Below, piece after piece: positions 10,659 through 57,826 of a stretch of DNA of 64,000 nt. The notes under the pieces are model-generated. The model had not been told where the DNA came from, ran no database searches, and saw only the letters and a list, made by a program, of their open reading frames with translations. The stretch spans positions 10,702-74,701 of the IMG/VR virus record IMGVR_UViG_3300008110_000181; one strand, written 5' to 3'. A program made the position numbers and the translations under genes. Origin of the DNA: a virus. The stretch's first letter is position 1, and every line of letters begins with the position of its first letter.

Positions 10659-11501
10659 TCATCCTATCATATCTAATGGTGGTAGTTCATATTCAAGTGC
10701 CATTCTTTGTTTAATATCTTCTAAATCTCTCTGTGCATCGTCGTAAATTTGTCTTCCATTGAGTTCTATACCACCAGGAAGTTTTACCCCCTGGAATTTA
10801 ATCAAGTTCTGTCCCCACTGTCTTTTTATGAGTGCAGTTAGATATTTTTTTAAGAAACTGTCATTATAAACCTTAGTAAAGGTATTTGGATCTAAAATTC
10901 TGTAGCATTCAATAACAATATAAGTATCTTTTGTTTGTGATCCCCAATCAATATCCAGATAAAGTCTATTTTGTCTCTTGTTGAATCTTATTTGTTTATC
11001 TGTAGTAAGTAAAAAGTCAATATCTTCTAAGTAACTTTTTACCATTGCATATTGCAAAAGTTCAACAGAATTAAAATAATATAAGTCATTTAAAAATAAT
11101 TGATATTTGATACTCCACATTCCACCAGAAATAGAACTAGTATCAAATTTAAATATCTTTTCTATTCCAATGACAGAATCTGGGACTTGTATATAATTAG
11201 AAGCTTCGTAAAAATTAAATGTAGTTGTACCAATACCAGCAATGTTGGAAGAACCTGTCGTAGTTGTAACACCAACTCCACCAGGAAGAGTACCTTTACC
11301 TTTATTGAGATCTTGCTCAGTAAATTTGTACTTTAAGTACATTTTTTCAATACCATCAAAATGACGTTCTTGAAAGTATTGAAGAGCATCATCTACTAAA
11401 TCATCTAATTGTTCTTCGGCAACGTTAATTTCAATAACTGGTTCACCAAGTTGTCTTAAACAATAATCAATTAATTCTTGTCTTGAAGCTGGTTTTGACA
11501 T
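10659..11501 (-). CDS. g13: neck protein gp13
   Basis: ELIDYCLRQLGEPVIEINV, QWGQNLIKFQGVKLPGG. Confidence 0.93.
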   Translation of the reverse strand: MSKPASRQELIDYCLRQLGEPVIEINVAEEQLDDLVDDALQYFQERHFDGIEKMYLKYKFTEQDLNKGKGTLPGGVGVTTTTGSSNIAGIGTTTFNFYEASNYIQVPDSVIGIEKIFKFDTSSISGGMWSIKYQLFLNDLYYFNSVELLQYAMVKSYLEDIDFLLTTDKQIRFNKRQNRLYLDIDWGSQTKDTYIVIECYRILDPNTFTKVYNDSFLKKYLTALIKRQWGQNLIKFQGVKLPGGIELNGRQIYDDAQRDLEDIKQRMALEYELPPLDMIG

Positions 11502-40067: not shown

Positions 40068-41326
40068 TCAGGCAGGGGCACCGCTGCGGATGTGACGGTT
40101 GGCATGACCTGCTTTCACTGCAGGTCGCCATGCGGTCTTGCTGCCTCCAACCTGAGACATGGTTGCCTCACCCGTACGGGGACCACGGACGGGCAGACGG
40201 GTGATCTTGAATTGACCTGCTGCGATTGCTGCGTTCAGTTCGGTTGCGGTCATGATGGGGGGTCGGTTGACTTGAGAGTATTGTAGCAGATCGGGGGCAG
40301 GGGTCAACCCTGCTTCAGGTCATCCCGAAAGACATCAGCGAACTGCCCTGCGATGGCATAGGCAGAGATGCCCAATTGGGGCTGAAGACGTGACCCCATG
40401 AGGGAGTCGTCGTTGCCACGGGCAGTCCAAACGATTTGACGGGTACGGAGGTCGGTTGACTGAGAGAGGATCATGGGGGTCGTTTGAACTGAGATCATCC
40501 TAGCAGATCGGGTCACCAGATCACGGGGTTGCCTTCAAAATCCGTAACAGTGCCCTGCTCCGTATCGGTGGCAATGCTCTCCAGGATCTCCAGGAGTTGG
40601 GTGCCAGTGGTGGCACGGTTCAGCAGGGAGGTAGCGAGATCTTTGGTCATGGGTCTGTGTGTTGACTGAATCAGTATAAGGGGTCAGAGGGGCATCAGAT
40701 GATCGAACTGTGCCAGAGAGGAAGGTGCCACGTGGGCAGGAGATCCACAGGATCGATAGAAGTCCACCATGCACTCTGCCTCTGCCAGACTGGTGAACCA
40801 TTGAGACCTCCACTCACAGGAGTTGTAGGGGGTCTGGTAACGGACTTCGATTCGCATGGATCGGTTGTGGTTGTGAGAGTATTGTAGCAGATCGGGGGGA
40901 GGTCACTCCTCCGACAGTTCCTCCATCATGTCGTTGATTTCGATCCCATCGATGGCAGGATCATCCCATCGGCATCCGTCAGGAGTCTCCTTGCTGCCAC
41001 ACTCCCAAAGCATTGCCACCAGGTCCTGATAGGTGCCTCCACGTCGGGCAATGCGACGTGCCTCATGGTAGAGTCCCTCATCGTTGCCGATCCAGAGAGA
41101 GACATTCCAGGTCTCCCAGTTTGCCCATCCGTTGTAGGTTTCGGTTTCGGGGATCATGGAGGTGAGAGCGTTCATGGGTGGTTGCGTGTGAGTGTATTGT
41201 AGCAGGTCAGGGGGGTCAGTCCCACCATCCGTTGCGGGTGTTGACCTTCATGCCCAAGGCGGCACACATCATGGGGAAACCGATGGCGACGATCATCAGG
41301 AGAGCGGCAGCAAGGTAGTGATTCAC
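40068..41326 (-). CDS. six tiny early genes: 40068-40253, 40304-40474, 40513-40650, 40684-40857, 40903-41175, 41216-41326
   Basis: Manual translation (e.g. MTKDLATSLLNR..., MRIEVRYQTPY...); five have their own -10 box upstream. Confidence 0.6.
40280..41201 (-). promoter_or_regulatory. extended -10 early promoters of the form CTGC-TACAAT/TAGGAT
   Basis: -10 boxes at 40280-40285, 40497-40502, 40881-40886 and 41196-41201, each preceded by CTGC; TTGACC -35 at 40302-40307. Confidence 0.75.
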
Positions 41327-41330
41327 TCCC

Positions 41331-42227
41331 TCATGCGGCACACTGGAAACGACCGTGGTTGAAATTAGCATTAGAAAAGACCTCACGATTCACCAGTTTG
41401 AACATACCAAACTCATTGGTCAGTACATAACCTTCGGCATCAATGCGATTCCCGTAGAGGTATGCTGCAGGACCATTGTTGCGGCAGAGATAGAGGCAGT
41501 CATCTTTGATAGACTTCACCAGTGCCCACAAACGCAGCAGGTTGGTATCACAATCGAAGTCTTCAGGGTTGACTTCCTCACCAGCACGAATGCAGGCATT
41601 GATCTGTTGCTTAATCTTTGCTGCCTCTTTATCAGTTACAAAGGTGGCAGTGGTTGCCATCTGTCGGGCAAAGTTGCAGACTTCCTCTACATCAGCAAAT
41701 CGGGTTTGACCGTGTGCAATCCATGCATCAGGTTTCACGAATAGCACGGAATCAGTAGACTCCAGATTCACCGTGAGAGGGATTGCCCAACTATCACGAA
41801 GATCTGCAATTGCCTCATAACGAGTGTGAGGTGCAATGATCACCTGTTGATCTACTACCTCTGGGAACTTGTAAGTGAGTAGGTTGGAGTTGTATTCATC
41901 AGATCCACCAAACCCGATAAAATCTCCCTGCAGAATGGAGTCTGAATGAGGAAGGCAATCATAACAAACGTGCAGAATTTTTGCAACTTCACCATCATAG
42001 AATTGATCGATTTCTTCATGATTGTGTGCAATGCGAATCTTTACTTTGTTGAAGACTGCTTTGGTGCCAATGAAGAACTTACCAGTTGCAGGGTTTGTGC
42101 CCCATACAATTGCGGGAGCACCGTCAATCTTAACACTGAGAGTGCCAGCAGCAGTGAACCAATCCAGAACATCAAGATTGCCCGTGAGGATCTCATCTTC
42201 GGGGTGTTCGAGGTGTGTGTTTTTCAT
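41331..42227 (-). CDS. conserved T4-like phage protein (DUF6267-like)
   Basis: MKNTHLEHPED, KIDGAPAIVWG, EGYV...KLVNREVFS. Confidence 0.7.
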   Translation of the reverse strand: MKNTHLEHPEDEILTGNLDVLDWFTAAGTLSVKIDGAPAIVWGTNPATGKFFIGTKAVFNKVKIRIAHNHEEIDQFYDGEVAKILHVCYDCLPHSDSILQGDFIGFGGSDEYNSNLLTYKFPEVVDQQVIIAPHTRYEAIADLRDSWAIPLTVNLESTDSVLFVKPDAWIAHGQTRFADVEEVCNFARQMATTATFVTDKEAAKIKQQINACIRAGEEVNPEDFDCDTNLLRLWALVKSIKDDCLYLCRNNGPAAYLYGNRIDAEGYVLTNEFGMFKLVNREVFSNANFNHGRFQCAA

Positions 42228-42247
42228 GCTCTTAGTATAGGGGGTGA

Positions 42248-42457
42248 TCAGTTGAACCAGTAGGCAAGTTGTGCCAGTTCCTCTGCCGTCTCTTGCAGGT
42301 TGTCAGGGGTCAGACGTGCCAGGATACGCTCCGCATCCTCCTCAGGCACGTAGGAGAGGTCACCATTGATCTCACCTGCCAGGATCTCAGCGAGTGCGAT
42401 GCAACGGTCCTGCAGGGTCATGGAGAAGTTCAATGCCTTGAGTTCGGTGCTGTTCAT
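42248..42457 (-). CDS. hypothetical early protein (probable start MNSTEL)
   Basis: ATG 6 nt downstream of TATACT. Confidence 0.6.
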   Translation of the reverse strand: MNSTELKALNFSMTLQDRCIALAEILAGEINGDLSYVPEEDAERILARLTPDNLQETAEELAQLAYWFN

Positions 42458-42645
42458 GCTCTTAGTATAGGGGGTCTGGGGGTGCTGTGGGGGTTTGGTG
42501 TCCAGTCCACGAAGTGGCACAGGGTCAGCCGCTGGGGGTGCCCTGAGATCTTATACTAAGGGCACAACGGAGAGAGGGGTGAGGTAACCCCGAAGACGAA
42601 AATGATCGACACCTCCCCTGCCATAAAATAAAAAATAAAAACTAT

Positions 42646-42670
42646 AAAAAAGGGGGCACGAATGCCCCCG
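42646..42670 (-). terminator. intrinsic terminator
   Basis: Minus strand GGGGGCA-TTCG-TGCCCCC followed by a T run, just after the stop at 42677. Confidence 0.85.
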
Positions 42671-42676
42671 AATTCT

Positions 42677-45038
42677 TTATGCAAACATGAACCCATCTTC
42701 GAAGTCGTAGCAGTTAAACACAGGGGAAGTTCCTGCCTGCCCGATGAACTTGTGAATGAACCAATTGAAGTTCTTTTGAAATACACATTCACCCTTGATT
42801 CCGTGCTCCGAAAGAATAGCATTCAGACGGGACTTAGTTGTCTTTGACTGATAACCACCGTCAAAGATTTGCACGAAGTCATCACCAACGACTGCAATCT
42901 TGTTACCGTGAAGGTATACAGTAGACTCGTTAGTTTCGGAATCGTAAGTAACTTCGGTATTGTCACAATGCCAGTTCAGGTTGTTAGAAATGGCATTGTT
43001 CATTTCACGTTCGATCTTACGCATGAGTCCGTTTCGTGTGAACAAAGGTAGTATGGACCAGATCGGGAGGCATTGCAACCCCCCTTGTGCCACTTAGTCG
43101 ATTGGCACATCCTCCACCAGTTCAGGGTAGTATTCTTGACACTCAGTGATCAATTCTTCGTCCGAATACTTAGCATAACCCTCATCCAGATAATCATAAC
43201 AGAGTTGGGTCATTGTTTTGAGATCCATGTCATCCAACATCTGCTGAATGAGTTGATCTTGAAGTTCAGAACGGTTCATGAGTTTCAGTTAAGAATGATA
43301 CGATAATCAATGGATTTGATGCACCAACCTGTAGCAAATGTGATCTCTTCTACGAGGTCATCTTCATCATCTGCTTCCCAGATTGTACCAAACACAACAT
43401 CACGGAGTTCTTCTTTGTATTCATCAGTGACGGGTTCATCATAAGCATCATCGCTAAAATCAAAGGCGATTTCAGTAACTTGGAATTGCATCAGTAGGTC
43501 ACCAGTGCGGAAACTTTATCATACAACTGGGCGACATTCACACCCAGTTGTTCACTCACTTCATCCCAATCTTCATGAAACTCAATGAGATCCAGCAGAG
43601 CACGAATCTCTGCTTGGTTTAGTTCAAGAACTTCAGGCATTGTTTTCAGTAATCGTAGTTTCCGTTCAGGTACTCATTCACATCGAACTTTTCATCTTTG
43701 AGTTCAGGAATGTCCATGTCGAAGATTTCACCAGGCATGTCCTGAATCTCACTCCAAAGTTCATCAAACATGGTTCAATTTCTGACGACTTGAATACAAT
43801 ACACGATCTCGGTGCCCCATGGGGGTTTAGTGTACGGTTCCCCAACTGGCACAGGGTCCGCTCCGATTCTCAATAAGAAAATATTATTGAGAACGGAAAC
43901 AGTTAGTGTTACTTACTGACCAAAGAATTCTTCGTAAACATCAGCAATGCGATCAATCAACCAATCGGTGGCGTTTACATCAAACACCTCACAAACCCAA
44001 TCCACGCAATCATTCAGATCAGTGTGATTGTTGCACATAAAATCACGCAGGGCGGGAGCAATGTCGAGATCGAACTGGTGAACCTCAGTAGCAGTAGGCA
44101 TCGCAGTGGTGTTGTTCATGTGTACACATTAGGGCATCAGGGGGCACAGCACAAGGGGGGTTGTGCCAGTTCAACGATTGGCACACACGTAGTTGTAAAC
44201 ATTGCGGCAATCTTGGTACAGTGCCTTACACTCAGGCACGAACACGTTCTTGACCCATGCCCAGAAAGTCTTGGCACCTTCGATGACACGAAGCACGAAA
44301 AGTTGAGTCCGTTCGGTCATATTGTGCTCTTGCCACTTCTCAGCAGTGATCATAGCAATTGCAGCAACGAATGCACAGAAGATCTCAACACCATCCATGA
44401 AAGTGTTGAAGTGTTTCTTATAATCAATCTCGGCGATCATCTCCACGAAAGCATCAGCAGGAGGGAAAGATTTGGTCAGTTCCATTGTTGTTTTGTGTGG
44501 CGGGTTGTTGTAGAGAATTCCTCAACCACGAAACCAACATAAAATATTTTTCAGCAATCCGCAAGGGGGTCTGTGCCACCACGTGGATTGGCACACGGGC
44601 AGCTGCCATTCTCAATAAGAAAATATTATTGAGAATCAATAAGAGTACTGTTATTGAGAATAAGACCAATTAATCAACTGGCACATTCACCAATCGATAT
44701 CGAATTCCTTGATGCTAGCATGTACATCTTCGTCAGATTCTAGTCCTAGGATATCTCGCCAATTGAGATCTTCTAGTTCTAAATCATCATAACACATGAG
44801 ATCTAGTGTGACGCGTACCATACGCTTTGTGTGTGTCGCAGGCATGTGATTCTCGTGCGTGGTGTGCTACATTCTATCATGCATAATGTATATACGCAAG
44901 TGTATCATAGTCTTGCGTATCTCGTGCATAATCCTCGTCGATGTCTACGTCACGTTGTGCATAATTCTCGTAATACGTATCCTCGTCGAGATTATAATCG
45001 TTACTGAAAGTGTAGTCGAGATCGTAATCGTCGTACAT
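42677..45038 (-). CDS. cluster of small, mostly acidic early genes: 42677-43024, 43094-43279, 43285-43491, 43491-43640, 43646-43771, 43913-44119, 44171-44485, 44687-44845, 44877-45038
   Basis: ORF track plus manual translation; tightly packed, several with promoters. Confidence 0.6.
43866..44635. repeat. two identical 28-bp inverted-repeat elements ATTCTCAATAAGAAAATATTATTGAGAA
   Basis: Exact copies at 43866-43893 and 44608-44635; related half-sites at 44651-44661 and 45350-45402. Confidence 0.85.
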
Positions 45039-45218
45039 AATGCTCGTCGAGATTGTGTAACTAGATGTAGTATAGCATAGTCTCGACGAGTTTGCAAGCC
45101 TTATGATGCACCGTCTCGTCGAGATCATAATGATATATATGTATTCTTGTCGAGATTTGTTAAGAAATGCTTATAAGTCTCGTCGAGATTTGTGTGGGTC
45201 TCGTAATATCTCGTCGGG
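44934..45218. repeat. phased CTCGTCGAG palindrome array
   Basis: Exact or near copies at 44934, 44982, 45012, 45043, 45082, 45115, 45146, 45179 and 45210. Confidence 0.85.
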
Positions 45219-45222
45219 GGTC

Positions 45223-45251
45223 TTGACATTGAGACCTTCGTGTGTTATAAT
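45223..45251 (+). promoter_or_regulatory. consensus sigma70 promoter on the + strand
   Basis: TTGACA (45223-45228), 17-bp spacer, TGn-TATAAT (45246-45251). Confidence 0.8.
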
Positions 45252-45472
45252 CCGCAGACTTAACTCACAAGTCCTAGAGGCATTTATGAGACTTTTAGAA
45301 GGTATTAAACACAAGTCCTAGAAGGGTTTAGAAGGCATTTAGAAGACCTATTCTCAACTATATTCTCAATTGATTCTCAATAATTATCATCTTATTGAGA
45401 ATGTTATAAAACAATAACATATATTTTTTAATACCTTTTTTAATTAACTTTAACCTTATTTTGTATCAATCA

Positions 45473-45736
45473 CTACCATTTTTGCACTGGACAATAGGCT
45501 GCCACAAACTTCACCTTATGTTCTAACCAACAACCACAATGTCTACAACGTTTCTGTTGTTCATGATAATATTCACAGGTCTTACATGTATTCAATCGTT
45601 CTTCCCTTAACTGATCACTGGCATAGATCTGATGTTCTATAGGCATCATTGCATCCTTGACAACTTCAAATGTAAACTGTGCAAGATTCTTTCCTTGCTC
45701 AACTAATGACGGAAACTCTTCTTTATTGTCCGACAT
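45473..45736 (-). CDS. small Cys-rich protein (DUF6171-like)
   Basis: RLNTCKTC...RCRHCGC...CPVQKW. Confidence 0.7.
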   Translation of the reverse strand: MSDNKEEFPSLVEQGKNLAQFTFEVVKDAMMPIEHQIYASDQLREERLNTCKTCEYYHEQQKRCRHCGCWLEHKVKFVAAYCPVQKW

Positions 45737-46322
45737 AGAACCACCCTGTGATTACATACTTTGTTCCTTTTAAGACTAATCCACCACGATGACAATGTGT
45801 TAAACCAGCAGGCCAAATAAGTAATGTTCCTTTGCTTGGATTGATTCTCTTCTTATAATACAGAAACTCAGTCTCTCCACCTTCAAAATCATCATTCAAA
45901 TAAAACATCCAAACAGCAACTCTTGCCGAATGTTGCATGGCACTGTTCTCATCATGCCAGACATGATAACCACCACCAGCAGGAGTCTTTTGTACCTTTT
46001 GATTGATCGAATACAAGGTAATTGGTTTAAGATGTCCAAACACGGTCGTATACTCAGACAGACATTGTTTTAGAACTTCATTAACCTGTTGTTGTGGATT
46101 TGTCGGTTTAATATGAGCACCGAGTTCACCTAGATCAAGTGCCCAATCAAATCGTCCTGCATTACTATTCTCAAACTGATGATCTTCACAAAAGACGGCA
46201 TCCATATCATGATAATAATCAAATGCGGATACGATCTCATCACACAGATCAAAACTTAATATATTTTCGTATGTGCCGATGAAGTCTTCATACGTTCCTT
46301 TTAATTGTGTAGATTCTTCCAT
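45723..46322 (-). CDS. 2OG-Fe(II) oxygenase, prolyl-4-hydroxylase-like
   Basis: YHVWHDE, FYLNDDFEGGETEF, HCHRG, KYVITGW. Confidence 0.9.
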   Translation of the reverse strand: MEESTQLKGTYEDFIGTYENILSFDLCDEIVSAFDYYHDMDAVFCEDHQFENSNAGRFDWALDLGELGAHIKPTNPQQQVNEVLKQCLSEYTTVFGHLKPITLYSINQKVQKTPAGGGYHVWHDENSAMQHSARVAVWMFYLNDDFEGGETEFLYYKKRINPSKGTLLIWPAGLTHCHRGGLVLKGTKYVITGWFYVGQ

Positions 46323-46624
46323 TGTTCTGCTTCTGGATACTTTTCAATCACCTTATTCACAAACAAATCATAATACGTCTCATTCCATGATTCGACATTA
46401 CGTCCCCACTTTTCGATCGGACATTCTTCATACAAATGTTTCACCTTATTCGGCACATAACAATTGCACAGAATACAACCTTGATTCTCTGCATGATAAT
46501 GTTTACAATCAAGACAATGATCTAATCGTTTCTTTTCTTCTTCGGGATGAACGGGAAACAAGAACTTTGCATCGTTCATTTCACACACAATATGAAAGAC
46601 AAACTCTGATAGTTCCATACTCAT
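46301..46624 (-). CDS. small Cys-rich protein (DUF6171-like paralog)
   Basis: RLDHCLDC...CILCNC...CPIEKW; TTGACA-17-TATAAT promoter at 46642-46670. Confidence 0.7.
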   Translation of the reverse strand: MSMELSEFVFHIVCEMNDAKFLFPVHPEEEKKRLDHCLDCKHYHAENQGCILCNCYVPNKVKHLYEECPIEKWGRNVESWNETYYDLFVNKVIEKYPEAEQWKNLHN

Positions 46625-46666
46625 TTCAATTGAATTCTTTGATTATAACATTCTGATGCTGAAATG

Positions 46667-47926
46667 TCAAGCAATGTTTGATCTCTGTACCAGTGCTCCT
46701 GATGCACCTTTGTTTGCCCAACGAGTATTGGATACATTCAACCATGGGCCAGCACTACCACCATTGGCGACGTTTGTTGAACCACCAGCGGCACCATAGG
46801 TTCCACCTGCACCGCCATTAAAACCTGCACTGGTATTCGATGTCTGATTCTGTGCCGAATATCCACCACCACAATTTAATGAAGCAGCAGATCCTGGTGA
46901 ATTACCACCAACTGGCCCTGCGGTATTGTTTGATCCTTGTCCCGTACCTCCACCACCACCTGCGGCGGCAGCTGCAGACCCAATGTTCGTGTCTGATCCA
47001 CCACTACATCCCAAATACCATGGTGTAAAATACCAGACACCCTGGGATCTTTGTCCTCTGAAATAGGTCACACTTCCACCTGCATTACAATAGTTTTGTG
47101 TCTCTCCAGCCGCACAACTACCTGGGCAACCTGCCCACCAGTCCCAGTTAAATGTCGTCTGATAAGAATAATAATTAGAACAAATTGTCGTGCCACTGAC
47201 ATTACCAAATGGCCCACCAGCACCACCACCTCCACCACCTGCAATCAGTGCCGTATTGGATAGATTTAAGTTAATGGTCGATGCATTCCCTGTCGTGCGA
47301 CTTGTCGTATTTCTCAGATACAATGCACCACCACCACTATTACCATTTGTCGCGGCAGAATTGACGGTTTGACCAGATCCACCCGTTCCTTCTCTTCCTA
47401 ATACTTTCGTCGCGGCAAATGTCAAATCTAAATTCAGTGCGGATGCAGAAAAGACAATGGCATGAGCACCTGTCGTGCTTCCCTTCCATGTTGAATTATC
47501 AAATGTAACTCTCTTAGGTACATTTAAATCAATGTTGGATGACCAGTTATCACCAATTTGTCCTCCACCAGGACTAATATCAACCTGACTATTACTTCCA
47601 CCCGTATAAGATACATCATAACGTTTGATCATATTTTTCAATGATGAAACTTTATGATTATTCGCAGCGGTAACTCCTGCACCATCGACACCACAAGTCT
47701 GATTCTCATAGGCATCGGGTACAATCGCAGTTGCCGCTGCTTTCTCATCGGGATTTGCATTAACATCCGCAAAGACTTCATTTGCACCTGTCTTTCTGCG
47801 ATAATCACCAAATCGAATATTTGTCCCAGGTCTACCCATTGTAGAGGCAATCGTACTGAAACTCAGTGCTCCCACACCTGGCCCAATATCTTGAAAGTAT
47901 TTGGTCTGTGTCGTATTAACAGGCAT
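46667..47926 (-). CDS. Gly-rich fibre-like protein with a Cys/aromatic insert
   Basis: IAGGGGGGAGG and GGGGGTG flank a Cys/Trp/Tyr-rich segment; CTAAATA late box at 47956-47962. Confidence 0.65.
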   Translation of the reverse strand: MPVNTTQTKYFQDIGPGVGALSFSTIASTMGRPGTNIRFGDYRRKTGANEVFADVNANPDEKAAATAIVPDAYENQTCGVDGAGVTAANNHKVSSLKNMIKRYDVSYTGGSNSQVDISPGGGQIGDNWSSNIDLNVPKRVTFDNSTWKGSTTGAHAIVFSASALNLDLTFAATKVLGREGTGGSGQTVNSAATNGNSGGGALYLRNTTSRTTGNASTINLNLSNTALIAGGGGGGAGGPFGNVSGTTICSNYYSYQTTFNWDWWAGCPGSCAAGETQNYCNAGGSVTYFRGQRSQGVWYFTPWYLGCSGGSDTNIGSAAAAAGGGGGTGQGSNNTAGPVGGNSPGSAASLNCGGGYSAQNQTSNTSAGFNGGAGGTYGAAGGSTNVANGGSAGPWLNVSNTRWANKGASGALVQRSNIA

Positions 47927-47967
47927 TGCGACAAGAATAGATGTCTATTTTTAGATATTTAGACTCA

Positions 47968-48480
47968 TTACCGATATTTGATCGCAACCGTGAACCGATG
48001 ACGATTTCGAAATGTTGTCGCACGATGTAAAATCGATGCATCAAAAATTGATAATCGATTTGGTAATGGACAAATACCCTGAATACTATCATCCATATAA
48101 AATTGTGTCTCACCACCATCATTCAGATTCCATTCTAAATGTGGATAATACAACAAGGTATAACCAGTCTGATCATCAATATGAAAATAAGGATTCTCTC
48201 CTGGTGCAAAACAATTCACATACATTCGATACATCTTCAAAGATCCAAGAAAATCAAATGTTTCTATAATCTTTCGACTGAATAACTTATAGACAAATTC
48301 ATGCCCAGAAATATGATGCACCATACCTGTCGGAGGATAACCAACAATATCAGGTTCACCATAATGATAATTCGCACTCAGACAGTATTGATATACTCTC
48401 TGATGCTCTGGTTTGGTTAAAAAGTTATCGACAAAATTAATTTGCATGAATCGTTGACCGAATGTGTAAATTAAATGCAA
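47968..48480 (-). CDS. 2OG-Fe(II) oxygenase
   Basis: YFHIDD, GGETQF, ILHRA, RFTVAIK. Confidence 0.85.
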   Translation of the reverse strand: MHLIYTFGQRFMQINFVDNFLTKPEHQRVYQYCLSANYHYGEPDIVGYPPTGMVHHISGHEFVYKLFSRKIIETFDFLGSLKMYRMYVNCFAPGENPYFHIDDQTGYTLLYYPHLEWNLNDGGETQFYMDDSIQGICPLPNRLSIFDASILHRATTFRNRHRFTVAIKYR

Positions 48481-49057
48481 CCGTGATTCTAGGATAATCT
48501 GGTGTCGGTTGTGATGGTCTCACCCGATGTCCCAAATGTGCAGGAAAGATAATCAAATCACCCTCACGAATCTGTGGATTGTACACATAGAAATTATTAT
48601 ACCTTCGATTCAATTTACTGAGTGAATCAATGAATGTCACGGGTACATGACGTTCTGGATCGAATTGTAAGAAATGAATTGCGGAAAAGTGTGCATCAGG
48701 TTCATTAAATGACATTCCAATATGATCGTGCTCTTCCTGATATTCACCGTTCTCATAGTAATTAAACCATGCAGTCGTGAACTGAAATTCTGTACCTTTA
48801 CCGAATACCTGACTGAAATGTTTCTCATAGTTCTGTCGAACTTCTGAGGGTTGAATAAACATTTTATAATTGATGTTATCCTGCTCAAATGTTGTATAAA
48901 CCTTATCTGTAATCCAACCAGCAGGTTTATCAATCTGATGATCTTTCTGATACTGCAATATCTTCGGAAGAAGAAGTTCTTTGAGAACTTGATTCTTCTC
49001 CCGAAGACTGTATTGATAAATGTAAGTCGGAAAGATAATCTTTCTATATTTGTTCAT
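48437..49057 (-). CDS. putative 2OG-Fe(II) oxygenase (TIGR02466-like)
   Basis: WFN...QEEHDH, EGDLIIFPAHLGHRV, RITVAFN. Confidence 0.8.
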   Translation of the reverse strand: MNKYRKIIFPTYIYQYSLREKNQVLKELLLPKILQYQKDHQIDKPAGWITDKVYTTFEQDNINYKMFIQPSEVRQNYEKHFSQVFGKGTEFQFTTAWFNYYENGEYQEEHDHIGMSFNEPDAHFSAIHFLQFDPERHVPVTFIDSLSKLNRRYNNFYVYNPQIREGDLIIFPAHLGHRVRPSQPTPDYPRITVAFNLHIRSTIHAN

Positions 49058-52000
49058 GCTTCACAGGTTGTTGATAGTACACATCATTCCAATGTCTTAT
49101 GACCCCCGCAACAATAAAAAGATTAGTAATGAGATAAGTGAGAAATATAAGAGTCCGTAAACAAGCAATGTGGTCTGCTTCTCTGTCATTTTTCGTCGCC
49201 TTCTGACCAAGTGCCTTCGCCCATAACCTCCACATATTCTTTTTCTTCTTCATAGACTGATTCTCTTGATCTTACATATTGGAGTTCATTCCATTGATTA
49301 TTATAGCACAAAACTAACAACCGATCATTACGATGCAGATTACATGCTGCATAGTTCTCATAATTCTTCGGTTTGACGTTTAATTCAATCGTGATATATT
49401 CTTTGCCCTTGAAATACACCCATCCCTCAACCTTGTGATTCCAATAGACATAATGATTGACTTCGGGTGTATAACTCATACAAAGCAAGACTCCAGTACA
49501 GTTTTCTTCGGCACCATTGCAGAATAGGGTGACGTATCATTTATACTAACAACGTCCCCGACCTTTCCTGAATTGATGGGGGAGTGATATTGTTTGGTTT
49601 TGGTGTTGTAGAAGCCCCAGATGCAACTGACTTTATCACCAAGGTTATAGTCAAAACTGCGATCAAAATGAATCCAGATTCCAACAATATTTCTTTGAAA
49701 TTGTTTTTGTTCATAATGATAACCTTTAGGTGCTTTGTGAGGGAATTCAATAGTCATCGCCATACTTGAGTCCTGATTCGGCATTGAGCAATTCTACAGT
49801 AGTTTGAAACCCTTTGGCAACTGTCAATTCATGAGTCTTTCCAATGTCATACACTGCTTCAACATCGTAGGTTGGTGCAGTAATCCAACTAAATCCCTTG
49901 CCAAAAGTATTATCAGGATTGACCACATACCAATGGCAAGCAGTGTCAGGGACGAATACAGAACATTTTTTCCAGTCATTGTCCCATTGAGGTACTTGTA
50001 CAAAGGATAGTGCGGCAAACAGAAAACCGAAAAGACTCAGAAACATGATCAATCTTCGTCGATAAGTGCTTTCAGATAGGCAGGATTCACTCCATCGGCA
50101 AGATAACCCTGAAGACGTACACTACACTCTTCTTTTGTAAGTTTAGTGTCGGTCACTTCCCACCCTTGGGTGAATACTTGTACGATTTTATAGTAAGTTG
50201 TTTCGGTCATGATCAGGTCAGAAATACATCAACAAGTCGGGACTCTTCATCTTCTGCAAGGGCAAATTTGGGTGCCTTCACAATATTTGGCATAATGCGA
50301 TCTTCATAGTTAACATCAAAACATGAAGTTTCATGAACATTTTTATTTGTCAGAAGATCAAAGCATTCTTGATCATCGGATGCAATCACACTGATCATGC
50401 CACCATATTCAGAAGAAGGAAATGGAACCCAATAATCAACTAGATAAATGTATTTCATTGTTACTTGTAAATTACTCCTTGATTGTAGATGAATGTTTTG
50501 TGTTTGTCAATAGAGTTTGTTGCCTTTCAATTTCAAACTTAATGGGCAATAGATGAGAAGTAAAGAAACCAGCATAGGGACCGTCTTTTAACAGTTCACG
50601 AATGTTCTCCACTTGCATCAGAGCAAGAGTTAGTTGCATTTTTCTATCCATCACATGAACTCTGCAATGTAATAATCACAAGTCACCTCAAGTTCTGCTG
50701 CTTTCCTCTCAATCTCATTATCAATAATCTTTTGAGCTTGATTTTCATATTCAAGATACCGTTGCTTGGCAAGATGATACATTTCCTGAACTTGAGCGTG
50801 CTTCATAAAATCATCAAAGGCATTCATGAATTGAGTGATTTCTTCATCGTTCATTGGCGCATCCAATCGTTTGACAGTAGTAGGCATCATACATCTTCTG
50901 ATCACGTTGGATCAGAAAGATATTATAACCAATAATGGTAATTGCCGCAACAGCAGCATAAGCAATATATTTCTTTTTCATCAGCAGGCACCATAAAAAG
51001 GATTACCCTCTTGAGGAGAGTTTTGATTGTCACCAGTCACCACATAATCATAAGCAAGACGTTCACGAATGGCAACTGCCTTCTCCACACGGTTCAGATA
51101 CTTCTTGGAGATCTGATCAATACCTTTCCAGGAAAGAATTTGCATACACCATTCTTCTGAGATGTCACCGAACGGAGTAGCAACAGGGTAGAAACCGATC
51201 AGCATGGTGCCATCTTTAGATTGCAGGGTGGGGAAGTCAGGCATGAGGTGTGTCCCGATTACCTCTGTATTATAGGTCAGAAAGACGGCACCACGTCGTT
51301 GCGTAGTCCAGTTTGGGAAGTGTCCATCTGCTCCCAAACGGAATAGAGTTTGTTATACAGTGCAGGCACACTCCCATATTCCCGTGCGATTCTATTTTCT
51401 TCACGGAGATTGAGTTCTTGCAGTGCAGATAGAATCACACCAAGTTCATGAACATTTAGATTTACTTGTGTTTCAGTCATTTCTTTTCAGTCTCCTTTAC
51501 TACAGGTTTGGTATAGGGAATTCTACCAGTCTCATTATAATTGATAATATCATACTTAAACTTACACTCTAATGGTTTTTGATTACAAAGTTTGAGTGCA
51601 TCATTATAAGATGACTGGCTATAAAAAGCACCCCCAGTAATGAATCCAAGCACGGCAGTTAAAATAAAACTTGGATAAACAACAACTTCTTTCATATTCA
51701 ATCCCAAGAAACATTTTGAAGTAAGAACCCAGGCATCACATATGTCCAGGCACCAGTGTCAGTGCTTCCACCGACCTTATATTCCCACTTATACTCATAT
51801 TTGTTGTGACTGTCCCAAGTCATGTACCCCTTCACTTTATCAAAACGACCTTTGATCGTCAACTTATGTTTGTTAGAAAAGATATTACGGGTGCGAAGTG
51901 CTCCACCAGTCTCACGGGTTTCGACAACCTTACAGACATCAGGATAGGTTTGAAGTCCTGCTTCAAGTACACAGGGAGTTTCATATACAAATGGTCGATA

Positions 52001-52099
52001 GACTTTAGGTGCAGGTGGTGCAGTCTGTGCAAGTGCTGGTGATGTGACCAGCAATGACATGATAAGAAAAAGTTTTTTCATCCAATTACTCTCCAACAA
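49044..52099 (-). CDS. run of small hypothetical genes (49044, 49186, 49476, 49747, 50213, 50472, 50651, 50844-50981, 50981, 51277, 51477, 51698)
   Basis: Tightly packed, overlapping minus-strand ORFs; several have TM or signal segments. Confidence 0.55.
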
Positions 52100-52392
52100 A
52101 CAACAGCATTGCCCTTACTTGTAGAAGCAATATGGGCAAAGGCAGCATAAGACAGATCAAGGTCAGCATGAGAATATGGACCACGATCATTTACACGAAC
52201 GATTACTTGTTTTCCGTTGTCTTGGTTTGTAACTCTAATTTTAGTTCCCATAGGAAGGTAAGGGTGAGCAGCAGTCCAACGGTAAGCATCAAATCGTTCT
52301 CCGTTTGCAGTAGTTTGTCCATGAAAACCATCACCAATTCCATAAAATGTAGTGATGCCACATGCAAGACCAGCAATCAAAGTTTCAATCAT
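52078..52392 (-). CDS. RlpA-like lytic transglycosylase (DPBB fold)
   Basis: TANGERFD, TAAHPYLPMGT, VRVNDRGPY, LDLS. Confidence 0.9.
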   Translation of the reverse strand: MIETLIAGLACGITTFYGIGDGFHGQTTANGERFDAYRWTAAHPYLPMGTKIRVTNQDNGKQVIVRVNDRGPYSHADLDLSYAAFAHIASTSKGNAVVCWRVIG

Positions 52393-52707
52393 TCCTTAAT
52401 TTCATCTCCCACAAATTCCAGATAATTATATCCAATTAATTTACGACCTTGATGTGTCTCAGTATCAATCAAAATATTTTCTTTTTCTAGTTTTTCCAAT
52501 CGACGATTGGTTGCAGTATTCAGTTTAGGTGTCCAGTAATAACTCATGAGATTCCTCCTTTCTTGTTATATTCTATCATAGATCGTCGTGCAGAGTAATC
52601 CTCAAATTGAGTTGCAAACGATGCAATCGTCCGACCATTATCTGCCCAGTGCAAATACCAACGATTTGCAAACTGTTTAATTAGAATTGGTTTATCCATA
52701 TTGGTAA

Positions 52708-52899
52708 TCATTTGATGTCACCCTCGGCAATCAAACCCATGATCTCACGGGCAGTGGCAGCAAAGTTAATGTGATCCTCAAGACCTTCATCACTGTAGAT
52801 CTTGAACACATCAGATTGCCGATAAGTGTCTACAATCAGAGCACAGGCATCATACAGAGCAGCAACGTGGTGTGCCTTAGAGGGAAAAGAGAGTGCCAT
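52708..52899 (-). CDS. hypothetical early protein
   Basis: ORF behind a TATAAT box at 52926-52931. Confidence 0.6.
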   Translation of the reverse strand: MALSFPSKAHHVAALYDACALIVDTYRQSDVFKIYSDEGLEDHINFAATAREIMGLIAEGDIK

Positions 52900-52926
52900 G
52901 GGGGTGTTCTCTTGATTACCTTGTAA

Positions 52927-53424
52927 TTATACTGCCGAACAAAGTCGGTTGCCAAAGGGATGTGCCACTTGCAGTTCTGGCACATTCAATTCATCGTACA
53001 AATAGTCCAGATATAGGGTTTCTTCTTGCTCCCGTGCCTCTATTTCGTGTGGTTGATGCCAATAATCCATATTTTCCATGCATTCTTTACCATAATACAT
53101 TTTTCCGCTTCGCAACCGCAGTGAACCGACTACCCACTGCCGCAGATGGGTCAGTTCATGTAAAAGAGTTTTTATATACAACTCATCATCCATATGGGTA
53201 TTCAGTTCAATCAGAAAGTGACGTGGACGATAGGTCTCACCCACAACGTCACAATATCCATAAACCTGCTCACGATTCAGACCACGATGAACAATATCCA
53301 CCGTAATCTTATGGCGTGGGAAGAATCGATTCAGAAACCAAGAGGTAACATCCTCACAGGTCCGCTTGCGATAACCATATCCAGAATGCGTGATGTAAGA
53401 CATTGACCCCAGTGCAAAAACCAA
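52927..53424 (-). CDS. zinc metallopeptidase-like protein
   Basis: HExxH (LLHELTHLRQ) and downstream PHEIEA. Confidence 0.75.
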   Translation of the reverse strand: MVFALGSMSYITHSGYGYRKRTCEDVTSWFLNRFFPRHKITVDIVHRGLNREQVYGYCDVVGETYRPRHFLIELNTHMDDELYIKTLLHELTHLRQWVVGSLRLRSGKMYYGKECMENMDYWHQPHEIEAREQEETLYLDYLYDELNVPELQVAHPFGNRLCSAV

Positions 53425-53467
53425 ATGAACGAAGAAACAAACAGGAGTTTTTCCTTAGCAGTCATAC

Positions 53468-54572
53468 TCAACGTGCAACAATATCCAAAGTCTCCATCAA
53501 CATCAGAGCAAGTTCAATCTGATGATCCTCATCAACCAGAGGAATGTTAGTTTCAACAAACTCCGATGCAAGTTGCTGCAAGAGGTCAGTCATTCGCTCA
53601 TCTGCGAATACTGAAGTAGCAAACTCATTCTTGAAACCATCACGCAGCAGTTTGAGAGACTTGGTAACAGTCAGTTCTTTGATGGTGTCCATGGCGGGTG
53701 ATGTGTTGAACATGATATTATTATAGGGCATCTGGGGGCAGGTGAGCGCCCCCGTGTGCCAGTTATCGAAGTGGTTCATCGGGCGTACAAATATGCCCCG
53801 CTCCAATCAGCATTCTCAAGCAACCACCAAAGTATAATGGTCATCATGCCCAGTGCTCCAAATACTCTTTGAGTGAATAGTCTTCTCCAGTGCTAGTTTC
53901 TTCAATCAACTCATCAATGCTAAGATCTCTCAAAAGGAAACGATAATCTTCTGGAGAAATGTCGGAATCTGGATCAAAGTCATCGTGACAGAGAAACTCA
54001 TACTCCTTAACAAGTGCGTTAATCAGTTTTTCTTTTGTAGGATTCATTTTCTTTGTCAAGATGATTAAACCGAGGAGAGAATAGTGCTAGTGCTGCCCAC
54101 GCAACACTAGCGGCAATGATAAGGAAGTAAATCATCGTGCGTACAAATATGCCCCACTCCAGTCCGCATTTTCCAGCAACCATTCACGCTGCTCAATGAT
54201 GCGAAGATCATATCGAACACCTTTGGCAGGTGCTTTCCAACTGGCACTTTTATAAATTTCTCCCGTCTTCTTATCCACAAAAGCATGAACACTACGGGAA
54301 CCATTGGCAACCATAATGATTTTGTGATACTTACGACCCGTTTCAGGGTAGAACTCATAGTCAGAAATACCCTCTTTCAGTTTGATAATCTGCTTTTGAT
54401 GATACTCTTGAGTGTCAGCATCATCAACAAACTTTTGATGAGACTTGATGCTGTAATCAACAAAGTTCTGACGCAGTGCCTCACAGAGAGCATAGGTGTG
54501 CCCCAGAACTGCCTCTGCAATGTTGTTTCGTGCTTCTTGCTGGGCAGAATACTCGGCAAAGGTGGTAGTCAT
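53468..54572 (-). CDS. hypothetical genes 53468-53713, 53844-54059, 54019-54135 (38-aa TM peptide) and 54132-54572
   Basis: ORF track with starts adjusted to promoter position; manual translation. Confidence 0.6.
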
Positions 54573-54828
54573 TGGTTTGTTGCGTATGAGTGTATTATAG
54601 GGCATCCCAGAGGGGTCTGGCAGGTCAGTATGCCAGTTCCACATCTGGCACCCAGGTGCTGTCATCTTTTAGGTATCCCATCCAATCTTGAGGGTCAGTT
54701 TCATAAATTTCAATCTCCCGCAGTTCCTCAATCAGTTCAGACAGATTCATGAAAGTTCCTCAATCACTCAGTTATAATAGCAAAAAACCCCTGCTTTCGC
54801 AAGGGTTAGTGTGCCAGTTGTCAGAGTG

Positions 54829-55233
54829 TCACTTGTTCATTTGCAAAGTTGGTACAGGAAGACCATTCTCCGTAGGAACATAGATGGTCACGTTACCTTT
54901 ATTCGATCCTTCTTCCAGCCCAGTGATATAAAGATACTGAAGATACTCACGGTTATCTTTCAAACTGTTACCAATGATTTGGTTTGCTTTTGCAACACCT
55001 TGAGCACGAATCACCTCAGCATCAGCAAGTTGTTGTGCTGAATCTTTCTTTGCTTGTGCTTCCAGAACTGCTACCTGACGAGTATATTCTGCTTTCTGAA
55101 GTTCTGCTTTACCTTGCAGAGATTGTGCCCACACATTATAGAGAGGACCAACCACAGCATTGATAATAAACAGAGAGAGAATAAAGGAAGCACCAATAAT
55201 TGTGGCGTTCCGCATAGTGTTATCTTCTTTCAT
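54829..55233 (-). CDS. SPFH/band-7-like membrane protein
   Basis: N-terminal TM, AQGVAKAN coiled coil, YLQYLYI...IYVPTE. Confidence 0.65.
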   Translation of the reverse strand: MKEDNTMRNATIIGASFILSLFIINAVVGPLYNVWAQSLQGKAELQKAEYTRQVAVLEAQAKKDSAQQLADAEVIRAQGVAKANQIIGNSLKDNREYLQYLYITGLEEGSNKGNVTIYVPTENGLPVPTLQMNK

Positions 55234-55832
55234 TTTGAGGAAACTCCAGAGTTTTTAAAGATCATGTTGGCAAGGATGATAATAGCAAGATTCTGCCAAA
55301 AGGTCAACGATATACTAAACCAGGACAGAATCAAACCAAGCAACCATGCTTCAAACAAAATGCTTGCCGTTACAATAACAACAGCAGCAAATACAACACC
55401 AAGAGCAGTAGTAGTTTTCATAGATCAAGCAGCAAGAGCACCAGAGGGAATTTCAACACCTTCCATATATGAATCGTGCCATTGGCAGGTATCATAGCAC
55501 AACCATTCACCAGATTGAGTATAGAGATAGGCAAACTCTTCACCATTCTGAAGATACTCTGCCAGGTCTTTATCGTGCCTAGGTTCAGTTACTTCACCAC
55601 GAGTAGAGTAATACAGAGGACCAGTTGTAGGCAGAGTTTCATTATCCCAACCTACATTTGTCCAGAGTGCAGAGATATCACCACCATCAATCAGTTGTGA
55701 AACTTTAGCACGAGTGTTGAAATGTTCTTTGAGTTTAACACCATTGAACTCAGGATAACCGTCCCAATGACAATAAACAGAAAGAATTGAACCATCTTTG
55801 AGTTCAATGCCAATGCGAGAACGGGTTGCCAT
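55230..55832 (-). CDS. small membrane protein (55230-55421) and conserved phage protein (55425-55832)
   Basis: Two TM segments; MATRSRIG...YCHWDGYP motif. Confidence 0.65.
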
Positions 55833-55910
55833 GGGGTGTCTGTCGATTACCTTGTAATTATAGTGCCAAACAAGGCAGGGGCAGGGGCAGAGTGGACAGT
55901 TATCAAACTG

Positions 55911-56339
55911 TCACCCAAAATACTTCTCAACTCCTATGGGTTCACCGAAACTATAATCATATGTGAGGGCATTGTGACAGATATAGTGAGCATGATTGGT
56001 AGAAACACCTAGTCTTTCACACAATTCCTTATGATTATCTTCCATAAGTTCAACAGCATAGAGCATATTTTCAAGAATGTGGTCTAAACTGTGATATTCA
56101 AGTAATTTGTCCCGCAGGGCAACCATAAAGTTGCCCGAGCCAGCAGAATTGTCTAAAAATTTAGAAGTAGGATCTTTCAGTACATCTTCTGGCAGATCAC
56201 TGACCATTTTTTGACAAACTTCCATTGGTGTGAACACTTCTTGAGTGATCTTGATTCTTTCATCAGATCTCTCAATTTTAGATCCAACTTCTTTATTGTG
56301 CTTGTTCTTGGTATTCGATATAGGATTCGATAAGTTCAT
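55911..56339 (-). CDS. DNA methyltransferase-like protein, SAM-binding part
   Basis: EVFTP and motif I FLDNSAGSGNF; no NPPY; start uncertain. Confidence 0.7.
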   Translation of the reverse strand: MNLSNPISNTKNKHNKEVGSKIERSDERIKITQEVFTPMEVCQKMVSDLPEDVLKDPTSKFLDNSAGSGNFMVALRDKLLEYHSLDHILENMLYAVELMEDNHKELCERLGVSTNHAHYICHNALTYDYSFGEPIGVEKYFG

Positions 56340-57534
56340 GCTTTGAGACGTGATTTCTACCGTTAGTTTGTGATGCAAGTTCAATCAGTTTTGGTTCAAG
56401 TTCTTTGATAGTATCAATCACTTGTTGAGTTTTTGCATGAATAAAAAAGTGAGAATATTCATAGTGTTGAAAATTTTCTGTAAGAACTTTGCCCGCATGA
56501 CCAGTTCTCATCACAAACAGATTAGCACTAGGGTCACCTTTCTTGACAAATTCAAAGTCTGGATGAGTTTTATAAGTTTCAATTTTAGTTCTTAGTTCAG
56601 ACCTAACTTCCCATCGTTGGACAACTGCATTGATACCACCAGGAAAAGACTTATCATCACAATCAATGTCTTCTACACAATGTAAATCTTTTCTGATTTT
56701 ATTTTGACTAGATGGTTTACGAATAGAAGTGGGCAAAACAAGACTAATAATACCACCAGGAACAACACGATCTGCTGCACAATTCAAGAAACGAATTGCA
56801 AGATTACCAGCATTACCATAAGGTGGGTTGCCAATTACAACATTAAATGCTTGAGACATAAACTCATCGTTTGAAATAAGATTTACATTTTCATTTTCAC
56901 TGACATACAATGGCAAAGAAGAATTTTCTTCAACATTATGAGTGAAAATATTCACAAATCCTTGATTGATTAGATACTCACAATATGCACCATGGGCATC
57001 ATAAGGAACAAATATTTTAACATTTTTTGGAAGATTTTGCAATAGATTTGTTTGGTAGATAATCAGTTCCATTGGCACGACTCTATGTGCTTCACCCTTT
57101 CTACCTTTTCTCTCCCTCAGAAACTTACCAGGCGATTGCCCAGTCTTTTTCTCGTACTCGTAGTAATAATCATTCAAATTGCGAATGATTTTAACAATAT
57201 CTTCAATTGCATCTTCATAACTTTGATGAGTAAAAGTTACAAAAAAGTCATGAGAACCTTCTTTATCTGGATTCTTCAAAAAATGGTGAGAAAGCATCCG
57301 ATCATGAACGGCATAGTCAGTCAGATCAGGATGAACTTCTAACATCGCATAAACTTCTGGTTTGGTGAAAAAATGAGAATAATCTCCATTTGCAAACCTA
57401 TATTCAAACATGCGATGTTCGGTCATACCAACATCAAGACCAATTGGATACTCTGATCCACCGATAAGTTCACTACATTTTCTCCATTCTTTTGTGGTAT
57501 GGACGTAAATGTGATTCTTTTCTCGAACTTTCAT
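56293..57534 (-). CDS. amino-methyltransferase (N6-adenine type)
   Basis: FNVVIGNPPY motif IV, followed by LAIRFL and ISLVLP. Confidence 0.75.
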   Translation of the reverse strand: MKVREKNHIYVHTTKEWRKCSELIGGSEYPIGLDVGMTEHRMFEYRFANGDYSHFFTKPEVYAMLEVHPDLTDYAVHDRMLSHHFLKNPDKEGSHDFFVTFTHQSYEDAIEDIVKIIRNLNDYYYEYEKKTGQSPGKFLRERKGRKGEAHRVVPMELIIYQTNLLQNLPKNVKIFVPYDAHGAYCEYLINQGFVNIFTHNVEENSSLPLYVSENENVNLISNDEFMSQAFNVVIGNPPYGNAGNLAIRFLNCAADRVVPGGIISLVLPTSIRKPSSQNKIRKDLHCVEDIDCDDKSFPGGINAVVQRWEVRSELRTKIETYKTHPDFEFVKKGDPSANLFVMRTGHAGKVLTENFQHYEYSHFFIHAKTQQVIDTIKELEPKLIELASQTNGRNHVSKHELIESYIEYQEQAQ

Positions 57535-57564
57535 AATTTAAATTGAATCTTTAATATTTTACAA

Positions 57565-57589
57565 TAAAAAAGGGGAGTACTACTCCCCC
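57565..57589 (-). terminator. hairpin plus T tract overlapping a promoter
   Basis: Minus strand GGGGAGT-AGT-ACTCCCC-TTTTTTT after cp12. Confidence 0.7.
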
Positions 57590-57613
57590 AGTGTGCCAGT
57601 TTTAAAACTGTCT

Positions 57614-57826
57614 TCAATCATCATAGATTTTACACTCTGCTGCATCAGGATGAGTGTCACAGTAGAGTTCTAAAGGTGTTGGATCGTGTGACTCACCAGG
57701 ATGATGTTCTTTATATGCTTTCAGTGCTTCTAATTCTTCTTCAGTATGTCTCCTTGATTGTGGAGAAATTGTTGGATCACTCAGAAGATCTTCATCTTTC
57801 TGAATATGTTGGTCGATGTTATCCAT
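57614..57826 (-). CDS. cp12: CP12 Calvin-cycle regulator
   Basis: C-terminal PTPLELYCDTHPDAAECKIYDD; 70 aa from MDNIDQ. Confidence 0.92.
   Translation of the reverse strand: MDNIDQHIQKDEDLLSDPTISPQSRRHTEEELEALKAYKEHHPGESHDPTPLELYCDTHPDAAECKIYDD

Follow-up and report, generated by a model that had tools for sequence, protein, structure and literature searches.

A phased two-armed dyad upstream of small-gene promoters in a freshwater T4-like cyanophage and the match of its arms to the host CGRE1 element

T4-like cyanophages, which are among the most abundant viruses of oceans and lakes, start transcription without MotA and AsiA, which raises the mechanistic questions of how they do so and what recognises their early promoters. 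These questions return with a repeated palindrome, hereafter the dyad, that lies upstream of promoters in a 64-kb stretch of viral DNA (IMG/VR record IMGVR_UViG_3300008110_000181, positions 10,702 to 74,701; hereafter the window). A first-pass annotation had described 13 copies of this dyad and read them as the sites of a dimeric activator that defines a phage regulon of delayed-early or middle class. Our analysis suggests, with a probability of roughly 55%, that the dyad forms the upstream part, bound by a protein, of a Kyanoviridae promoter type standing before the small genes of an early-type region, and that these promoters are activated by a host factor, for which the regulator PlmA is the leading candidate. 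Three parts of this reading are what we infer: that the bound protein activates, that the genes are early, and which protein it is.

The dyad is a 24-mer with the consensus TGTGMCASTT-N4-AASTGKCACA, i.e. two 10-nt arms around a variable 4-nt centre. Searching the window for GTGCCAGT-N6-ACTGGCAC with up to three mismatches returned 8 sites, against 0.05 expected. A position weight matrix (PWM), trained on 360 IMG/VR sites and applied to the gene strand with a threshold of 8 bits, gave 12 matches against 0.15 in shuffled sequence, and 10 matches reach 12 bits or more. The 12 matches lie at positions 57592, 54810, 54629, 53755, 52961, 44662, 44572, 44162, 43086, 42498, 42270 and 40709, i.e. all within 40.7-57.6 kb, and the structural block at 0-39 kb has zero PWM matches. 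The repeat described at first pass is thus real, although two of its 13 copies, at 43831 (4.1 bits) and 55893 (7.0 bits), are weak; both keep the correct geometry and a downstream open reading frame (ORF). The earlier list was also incomplete, as it overlooked a copy at 42270-42293 (18.4 bits) in which only the promoter-proximal half is present. The repeated dyad is a real, functional-looking element.

The copies stand in a defined relation to their promoters. At all 14 candidate units a −10-like hexamer begins 28-31 nt past the 24-mer, and a further 6-50 nt separate this hexamer from the start of an ORF. Assuming that transcription starts 7 nt past the −10, the dyad spans about −65 to −42. 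The −35 region is poor, with 3 of the 14 promoters passing a sigma-70 scan at 9-of-12 and TTG occurring at the −35 position in 30-46% of the sites behind the IMG/VR logo. The spacer between dyad and −10 is GC-rich and sometimes holds the terminator of the preceding gene, rarely a true −35; in 2 units, the scan found a GC-rich terminator hairpin there. In 9 units the dyad runs into the end of the gene before it, covering the stop or the final codons in differing frames: the upstream stop falls inside the dyad at 57592, 55892, 54810, 44162 and 43086, and the upstream ORF reads through it at 54629, 52961, 42270 and 40709. Coding constraint was therefore rejected as the source of conservation, since both the overlapped gene and its reading frame relative to the dyad change from copy to copy. 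These results agree with the first-pass annotation on a motif to −10 distance of 30-32 nt (measured from a 22-mer, equal to 28-31 nt from the 24-mer), an upstream position of about −44 to −65, mostly weak −35 boxes and overlap with upstream gene ends. A two-armed site, a good −10 and a poor −35 support the geometry of an activator-dependent promoter.

The same arrangement is found well outside the window. The exact 14-base core TGTGCCA-N10-TGGCACA has no fewer than 233 sites, spread over at least 120 IMG/VR stretches, and single contigs often carry 3-7 of them. Among the matches listed, a stringent −10 lies 28, 29 or 30 nt past the dyad in 157 cases, against a background of 0-9 per offset, and the offset has a sharp mode at 29 nt. 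The logo of the IMG/VR dyads extends the arms to 10 nt (TGTGMCASTT-N4-AASTGKCACA) and shows a faint TTG at −35. In Syn9, five units of the form dyad-N29-(−10) are present at 46342, 48611, 49131, 51053 and 53049, within a small-gene block (46.3-53.0 kb) that is syntenic with the dyad region of the window. Counting dyads in other phage genomes gave 9 in S-PM2 (control count 0), 13 in P-SSM2 (control count 2) and 19 in S-CRM01 (control count 0), the last being a freshwater phage, and the same count in T4 gave 0 dyads (control count 2). The dyad promoter type is common to Kyanoviridae in general and not private to the phage of the window, which is a further, freshwater example of a shared promoter type.

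Gene content, gene order and environmental occurrence all bear on that assignment. The IMG/VR record is 74.7 kb long, with a CheckV completeness estimate of 35%, and the window covers 64 kb of it. Its long ORFs are all on the minus strand and encode T4-type gp6, gp8, a neck protein, the large terminase and a tail sheath protein, together with Kyanoviridae-specific families, including Kyano_Gp96 (all Pfam). The gene order is that of Syn9, with a small-ORF block upstream of gp25/gp6 and giant baseplate genes; the dyad-bearing block is syntenic with Syn9 gp55-gp93 and a wider block with gp40-gp98. A dozen studies of lakes or fresh water contributed 18 DNA runs that contain near-identical sequence. 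Because of these T4-type and Kyanoviridae genes, the Syn9-like order and the lake and freshwater runs, the window DNA is that of a freshwater T4-like cyanomyovirus; the structural genes and Syn9 synteny bear out the T4-like cyanophage source that the first-pass annotation had assumed.

An element for early-gene transcription is reported from this virus family. Doron et al. 2016 are said to describe a 'novel regulatory element' that controls early-gene transcription in Syn9 and P-TIM40, and this element is reportedly abundant and conserved among T4-like cyanophages; the small-ORF block of Syn9 reportedly holds its earliest genes. The dyad is probably this early-gene element and so probably already published. 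No description of the early motif was found in the open literature text.

A palindrome at gene ends could also act as a nucleic-acid hairpin, either as a terminator or 3'-end stabiliser or as a PeSL-like stem-loop serving mainly the recombinational shuffling of modules. The position of the dyad would suit such a role, as PeSL stem-loops likewise sit at gene ends just upstream of promoters (PMC4122927), and cassette indels end near promoter units (joins 40692/41324 and 53473/54159). Perfect copies can also fold, at −9 to −11 kcal/mol. However, what is conserved is arm sequence and not pairing. In arm statistics on 408 related sites, anchored on the geometry, the commonest changes are C5 to A (97 times) and its mirror G20 to T (47 times), and they occur independently of each other. 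As many as 90 of the 103 single changes break pairing, and compensatory double changes are not enriched, with 5 observed where the two commonest changes by themselves would lead one to expect ~11. Of the two arms, the promoter-proximal one is the more often intact. The spacer of the dyad is invariant in length and free in sequence, so a hairpin would carry a loop of 4-10 nt of free sequence at fixed length. In the window, 7 of the 14 copies, with proximal arm intact and phasing correct, fold no better than shuffled sequence. No T-run follows the dyad, and terminators, where present, are separate GC hairpins downstream of it. Since the arms vary independently and half of the copies do not fold, the pattern of variation marks the dyad as a site for a sequence-specific DNA-binding protein and not as an RNA or DNA stem, and we regard the hairpin as very improbable.

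Several other known elements were considered and set aside. No Rfam match to an RNA family was found in the window. N4-like hairpin promoters, suggested by the giant ORFs, were dropped when Pfam showed T4-type structural genes. Sigma-54 sites (TGGCAC), CRP/NtcA sites and CIRCE-like sites do not fit in spacing and orientation.

The arms of the dyad have a close counterpart in the host. CGRE1 is a 21-22-nt palindrome upstream of the promoters of yfr2 small RNAs in Prochlorococcus and marine Synechococcus (Lambrecht et al. 2018, PMC6191309). It is bound by PMM1637, a GntR-family protein and PlmA homologue, in pull-down and electrophoretic mobility shift assays and is activated by it in a reporter, and homologues of PMM1637 are found in all cyanobacteria (PMC6191309). 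The promoter-proximal edge of CGRE1 lies 55-57 nt upstream of the transcription start. For comparison, yfr2 loci were taken by pattern from marine metagenome contigs of high-light Prochlorococcus. An Rfam Cyano-1 match was obtained at 7 of 10 sampled loci, and an RNA that runs from the inferred start as far as the terminator would match Yfr2 in length. In this sample, 45 yfr2 upstream regions carry AACTGKCACA-TGTGACAGTT, with 46 nt between this site and a TAnnWT box. The phage arms equal the CGRE1 arms over all 10 nt (AACTGKCACA / TGTGMCAGTT), down to the same tolerated G/T (C/A) position.

The order of the arms differs between the two. All 38 of 38 host sites have the arrangement TGKCAC-N2-GTGMCA, with AAC/GTT outside, and the phage type was seen 0 times at host loci. 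The phage arrangement is GTGMCA-N10-TGKCAC in 377 sites, with GTT/AAC inside and a 4-nt centre, and the host type was seen only 6 times. Thus the CGRE1 arms abut (N1 in the low-light type), whereas the phage arms are inside-out by comparison, and the distance between arm centres is 10 bp in the host versus 14 bp in the phage. From this order of parts, the phage site is best described as a rearrangement of the host-site arms, not a copy. On one IMG/VR contig (L111; 6968-7010, 8250-8290 and 8410-8450), three arms stand in a row as TGKCAC-N1-GTGMCA-N10-TGKCAC, so that the middle arm belongs both to a host-type (low-light, N1) and to a phage-type arrangement. Phage-type dyads were absent from 273 kb of Prochlorococcus-like metagenome contigs, which is too little sequence to count. 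As a separate observation, several contigs of high-light Prochlorococcus (L143 793-870, L146 1411-1488 and others) carry Yfr10 directly upstream of CGRE1 and yfr2, with the Yfr10 terminator ending ~25 nt before the PlmA site.

A host reader is also suggested by the gene content of the phages. With the Pfam model in six-frame translation, no GntR domain was found in the window contig, Syn9, S-PM2 or S-CRM01, and 14 of 14 control genomes were positive. Because the arms match CGRE1 and these phages show no GntR domain, the likeliest reader of the dyad would be a host factor present at infection, rather than a phage middle-gene activator. A protein already in the cell when the DNA enters would dock on the arms of the dyad, the proximal arm mattering most, and the bound protein would assist host RNA polymerase, carrying the primary sigma factor, in binding a promoter without a −35, in the manner of class-I activation.

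Whether that factor is PlmA is a further step, and several points weigh against it. The inside-out arms mean that one rigid dimer cannot fit both the host and the phage arrangements. CGRE1 lies at about −79 to −58, compared with about −65 to −42 for the phage dyad, which is ~15 bp closer, and the distance from site to −10 is 46 nt in the host versus 29 nt in the phage. Moreover, the host yfr2 sequences examined are from marine high-light Prochlorococcus, whereas the phage of the window is from lakes. Of the two arms, only the like-oriented one (TGTGMCAGTT) sits at a comparable distance from the −10, 46 nt in the host and 43 nt in the phage. Because the arms are inside-out relative to CGRE1, we hold PlmA itself (PMM1637 in Prochlorococcus) as the reader to a tentative suggestion, somewhat short of even odds, that draws on half-site identity. 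PlmA has links to the PII-PipX nitrogen/energy network and to the response to high light. A broader and more doubtful proposal is that host PlmA reads the dyad and so turns on the earliest genes in virtually every T4-like cyanophage, wiring the onset of infection to the light and nitrogen state of the host. If this were true, the inside-out arms would reveal a second DNA-binding mode of PlmA, e.g. two dimers or a PlmA-PipX-PII complex. To our knowledge, no publication links PlmA to the cyanophage dyad.

The first-pass annotation had favoured a phage-encoded dimeric activator, made early, which would bind the dyad and switch on delayed-early or middle genes in place of MotA/AsiA. The geometry is that of an activator site, T4-like cyanophages lack motA and asiA according to the literature (PMC5780444), and a second, dyad-less promoter type alongside would allow two classes. 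The function of many genes in the dyad block was not assigned by family searches, which leaves room for such a protein. The sole hint of a DNA-binding fold in the block comes from a 227-aa ORF at 58904-59587 (minus strand), whose C-terminal part faintly resembles AbrB/MazE (Pfam E 0.0066; phrog_661); apart from it, Pfam, PHROG and NCBIfam gave no DNA-binding family among the dyad-driven genes and their neighbours. A phage activator would also have to read arms identical to those of a host regulator's site, and no GntR-type domain was found in the window contig or the three complete relatives. In addition, the dyad promoters stand at the head of the small-ORF block that in Syn9 reportedly contains the earliest genes. 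We therefore consider it unlikely, also in the form of a divergent phage protein. Of the earlier proposal, the sequence-specific, two-armed protein site with activator geometry (good −10, poor −35) is supported, and the phage-encoded activator is not. Nor is there support for a phage-specific regulon or a delayed-early or middle class, given that the dyad is Kyanoviridae-wide, lies in a Syn9-syntenic block and has host PlmA half-sites in phages with no GntR domain.

The bound protein might instead act negatively, with the dyad serving as a late shut-off operator or as an array of decoys drawing host PlmA off its own targets, i.e. the yfr2 small RNAs and nitrogen and light responses. The 10-20 copies per genome would be enough to compete for a low-abundance regulator, and inside-out arms might bind without activating. 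However, a decoy has no need of strict 29-nt phasing to the −10. For repression, −42 to −65 is a poor position, a weak −35 calls for help and not hindrance, and PlmA activates at CGRE1. A negative or sequestering role is thus improbable, and activation by a host factor remains our preferred reading.

The 14 units, all on the minus strand, differ in the state of their arms and in the genes that they precede. Unit 1 (57556..57615) has its dyad at 57592-57615 (20.2 bits; distal arm degenerate, proximal AACTGGCACA intact), a terminator-like hairpin at 57571-57589 and the −10 TAAAAT at 57556-57561, and its target (57534 to 56293, 413 aa) is methyltransferase-like by an Eco57I-like Pfam match. This dyad overlaps the stop of the upstream CP12 gene (57886 to 57614; Pfam CP12), whose homologues found here are all phage-like. 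A CP12 with 77% identity to the phage CP12 is encoded on the 1.6-kb contig CAYPET010000125.1, which is binned in a Chitinophagaceae metagenome-assembled genome and is probably a misbinned cyanophage fragment. Unit 2 (55857..55915) has a weak dyad at 55892-55915 (GTGACA...TGTCCAC, 7.0 bits), separated by a 29-nt spacer from the −10 TATAAT at 55857-55862, and precedes a 135-aa ORF of phrog_1987 (55832 to 55425). In unit 3 (54774..54833), the dyad at 54810-54833 (28.5 bits) is followed by a terminator-like hairpin at the −35 position (54786-54807) and the −10 TATTAT at 54774-54779; the target is a 41-aa ORF (54750 to 54625). The dyad of unit 4 (54594..54652), at 54629-54652 (25.2 bits), lies within this upstream 41-aa ORF, with the −10 TATAAT at 54594-54599 and a 146-aa DUF7717 (Pfam) target (54572 to 54132).

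Unit 5 (53720..53778) combines a dyad with a degenerate distal arm at 53755-53778 (23.7 bits) with the −10 TATAAT at 53720-53725; its target (53713 to 53468, 81 aa, phrog_3298) has its ATG 6 nt past the −10 and is a candidate for a leaderless mRNA. Unit 6 (52926..52984), with the dyad at 52961-52984 (31.4 bits), the −35-like TTGGCA and the −10 TATAAT at 52926-52931, scores 11 of 12 in the sigma-70 scan; dyad and −10 both lie within the end of an upstream 165-aa ORF, and the target is a 63-aa ORF (52899 to 52708). Unit 7 (44625..44685) is doubtful. Its dyad at 44662-44685 (8.8 bits) has a degenerate proximal arm, and only AATAAT is found at 31 nt, as was expected from the earlier remark that the copy at 44663 has no clear −10; the ATTCTCAATAA/TTATTGAGAAT palindromes then follow. 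Unit 8 (44536..44595) has its dyad at 44572-44595 (28.2 bits), the −35-like TTGCGG and the −10 TATGTT at 44536-44541, upstream of a 104-aa ORF (44485 to 44171). Unit 9 (44126..44185), with the best-scoring dyad at 44162-44185 (33.1 bits) and the upstream stop inside it, has the −10 TAATGT at 44126-44131 and a 68-aa target (44119 to 43913) whose ATG lies 6 nt past the −10, again a candidate leaderless mRNA.

The weak dyad of unit 10 (43796..43853), at 43830-43853 (4.1 bits), keeps its distal arm intact and has CCGTACAC as the proximal arm; the −10 TATTGT is at 43796-43801 and the target is a 41-aa ORF (43771 to 43646). Unit 11 (43050..43109) comprises the dyad at 43086-43109 (31.4 bits), the −35-like TTGCAA and the −10 CATACT at 43050-43055, and precedes a 115-aa ORF of the Kyano_Gp96 family (43024 to 42677; Pfam PF23790). 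In unit 12 (42464..42521), the dyad at 42498-42521 (8.3 bits) has the proximal arm TGGACAC, and the ATG of the 69-aa target (42457 to 42248) lies 6 nt past the −10 TATACT at 42464-42469. Unit 13 (42234..42293), the one absent from the first list, retains only the proximal arm AACTGGCACA (42270-42279; 18.4 bits) and has the −10 TATACT at 42234-42239, with the ATG of a 298-aa DUF6267 (Pfam) target (42227 to 41331) 6 nt further on. Unit 14 (40673..40732) has its dyad at 40709-40732 (14.1 bits) and the −10 TATACT at 40673-40678, before a 45-aa ORF (40650 to 40513). The ATG placed 6 nt past the −10 thus recurs in 4 dyad promoters (53713, 44119, 42457 and 42227; minus strand), in 3 of them as TATACTAAGAGCATG or similar, and the mRNAs of these short-leader promoters are leaderless candidates as read from the DNA. 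The other dyad promoters have leaders of 21-26 nt that are C-rich and without a Shine-Dalgarno sequence.

Other elements accompany the dyads. The motif-less extended −10 promoters placed near 40280-41201 at first pass were recovered as a dyad-less cassette of 38 nt in 4 copies with 68-100% identity, at 40258-40295, 40475-40512, 40859-40896 and 41174-41211. On the minus strand it reads CCCGATCTGCTACAATACTCTCA... and contains an extended −10 (TGnTACAAT), and each copy precedes a tiny gene. A ATTCTCAATAA...TTATTGAGAAT palindrome at 44600-44660 adjoins dyad units, and the same palindrome stands by dyad units in the unrelated IMG/VR contigs L004 (~9850-9920) and L033 (~785-835); it may be a second operator-like element. 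At 45215-45251, a perfect TTGACA-17-TATAAT promoter with TG lies on the plus strand, opposite to all genes, and overlaps an 11-bp hairpin. Two giant virion ORFs on the minus strand, 21909-34967 (4352 aa, YHYH domain) and 12847-20292 (2481 aa, DUF4815), sit between the gp6-like and gp8-like genes.

Variants of the region are seen in RNA libraries. In two freshwater RNA libraries, contigs bridge the points 40692/41324 and 53473/54159 and so skip 631 and 685 nt. The joins carry 21-22 other letters between their ends and fall at or near promoter units; they are variant genomes without a gene cassette. Only short, sparse contigs came from two freshwater metatranscriptome runs, and several of these read through dyads.

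The identity of the half-sites with those of the PlmA site names a concrete candidate protein for the start of transcription in these phages, and any PlmA model must explain the rearranged arms. If PlmA were the reader, early phage expression would depend on a host light and nitrogen sensor, which would bear on the light- and nutrient-dependence of infection.

The dyad can be set beside four known systems. Like the middle promoters of T4, the dyad promoters would form a phage class that relies on a DNA-binding activator and pairs a good −10 with a substitute for the −35. The MotA box of T4 consists of one 9-bp element at −30 and works only with the phage proteins MotA and AsiA. In contrast, the cyanophage element is a 24-bp dyad that lies at −42 to −65, away from a centre at −30, in phages that lack motA/asiA (PMC5780444). 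PeSL cassettes are known in the T4-type phages RB49/phi1, T4/PST and KVP40/nt-1 (Arbiol et al. 2010; Comeau et al. 2014, PMC4122927) and resemble the dyad units as compact repeats between the small ORFs of hyperplastic regions, each with an inverted repeat just before an early-type promoter, and then a short leader that runs to the start codon. In the window, the two variant joins end near promoter units. PeSLs have terminator-like stems of variable sequence and near-consensus −35 boxes (PMC4122927), whereas the arm sequence of the phage dyad is fixed family-wide, its pairing is dispensable and its −35 is weak, so that the window dyads do not combine a terminator-like, free-sequence stem-loop with a near-consensus sigma-70 promoter. 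CGRE1 and the dyad are both palindromes well upstream of a −10, and CGRE1 is an activator site. Finally, the early element of Doron et al. and the dyad belong to the same virus family and the same small-gene region, and, going by what is reported of the former, both pair a conserved upstream element with a −10 in place of a canonical −35/−10 pair and abound in cyanophage genomes and metagenomes; the difference is that the window contig comes from a freshwater phage.

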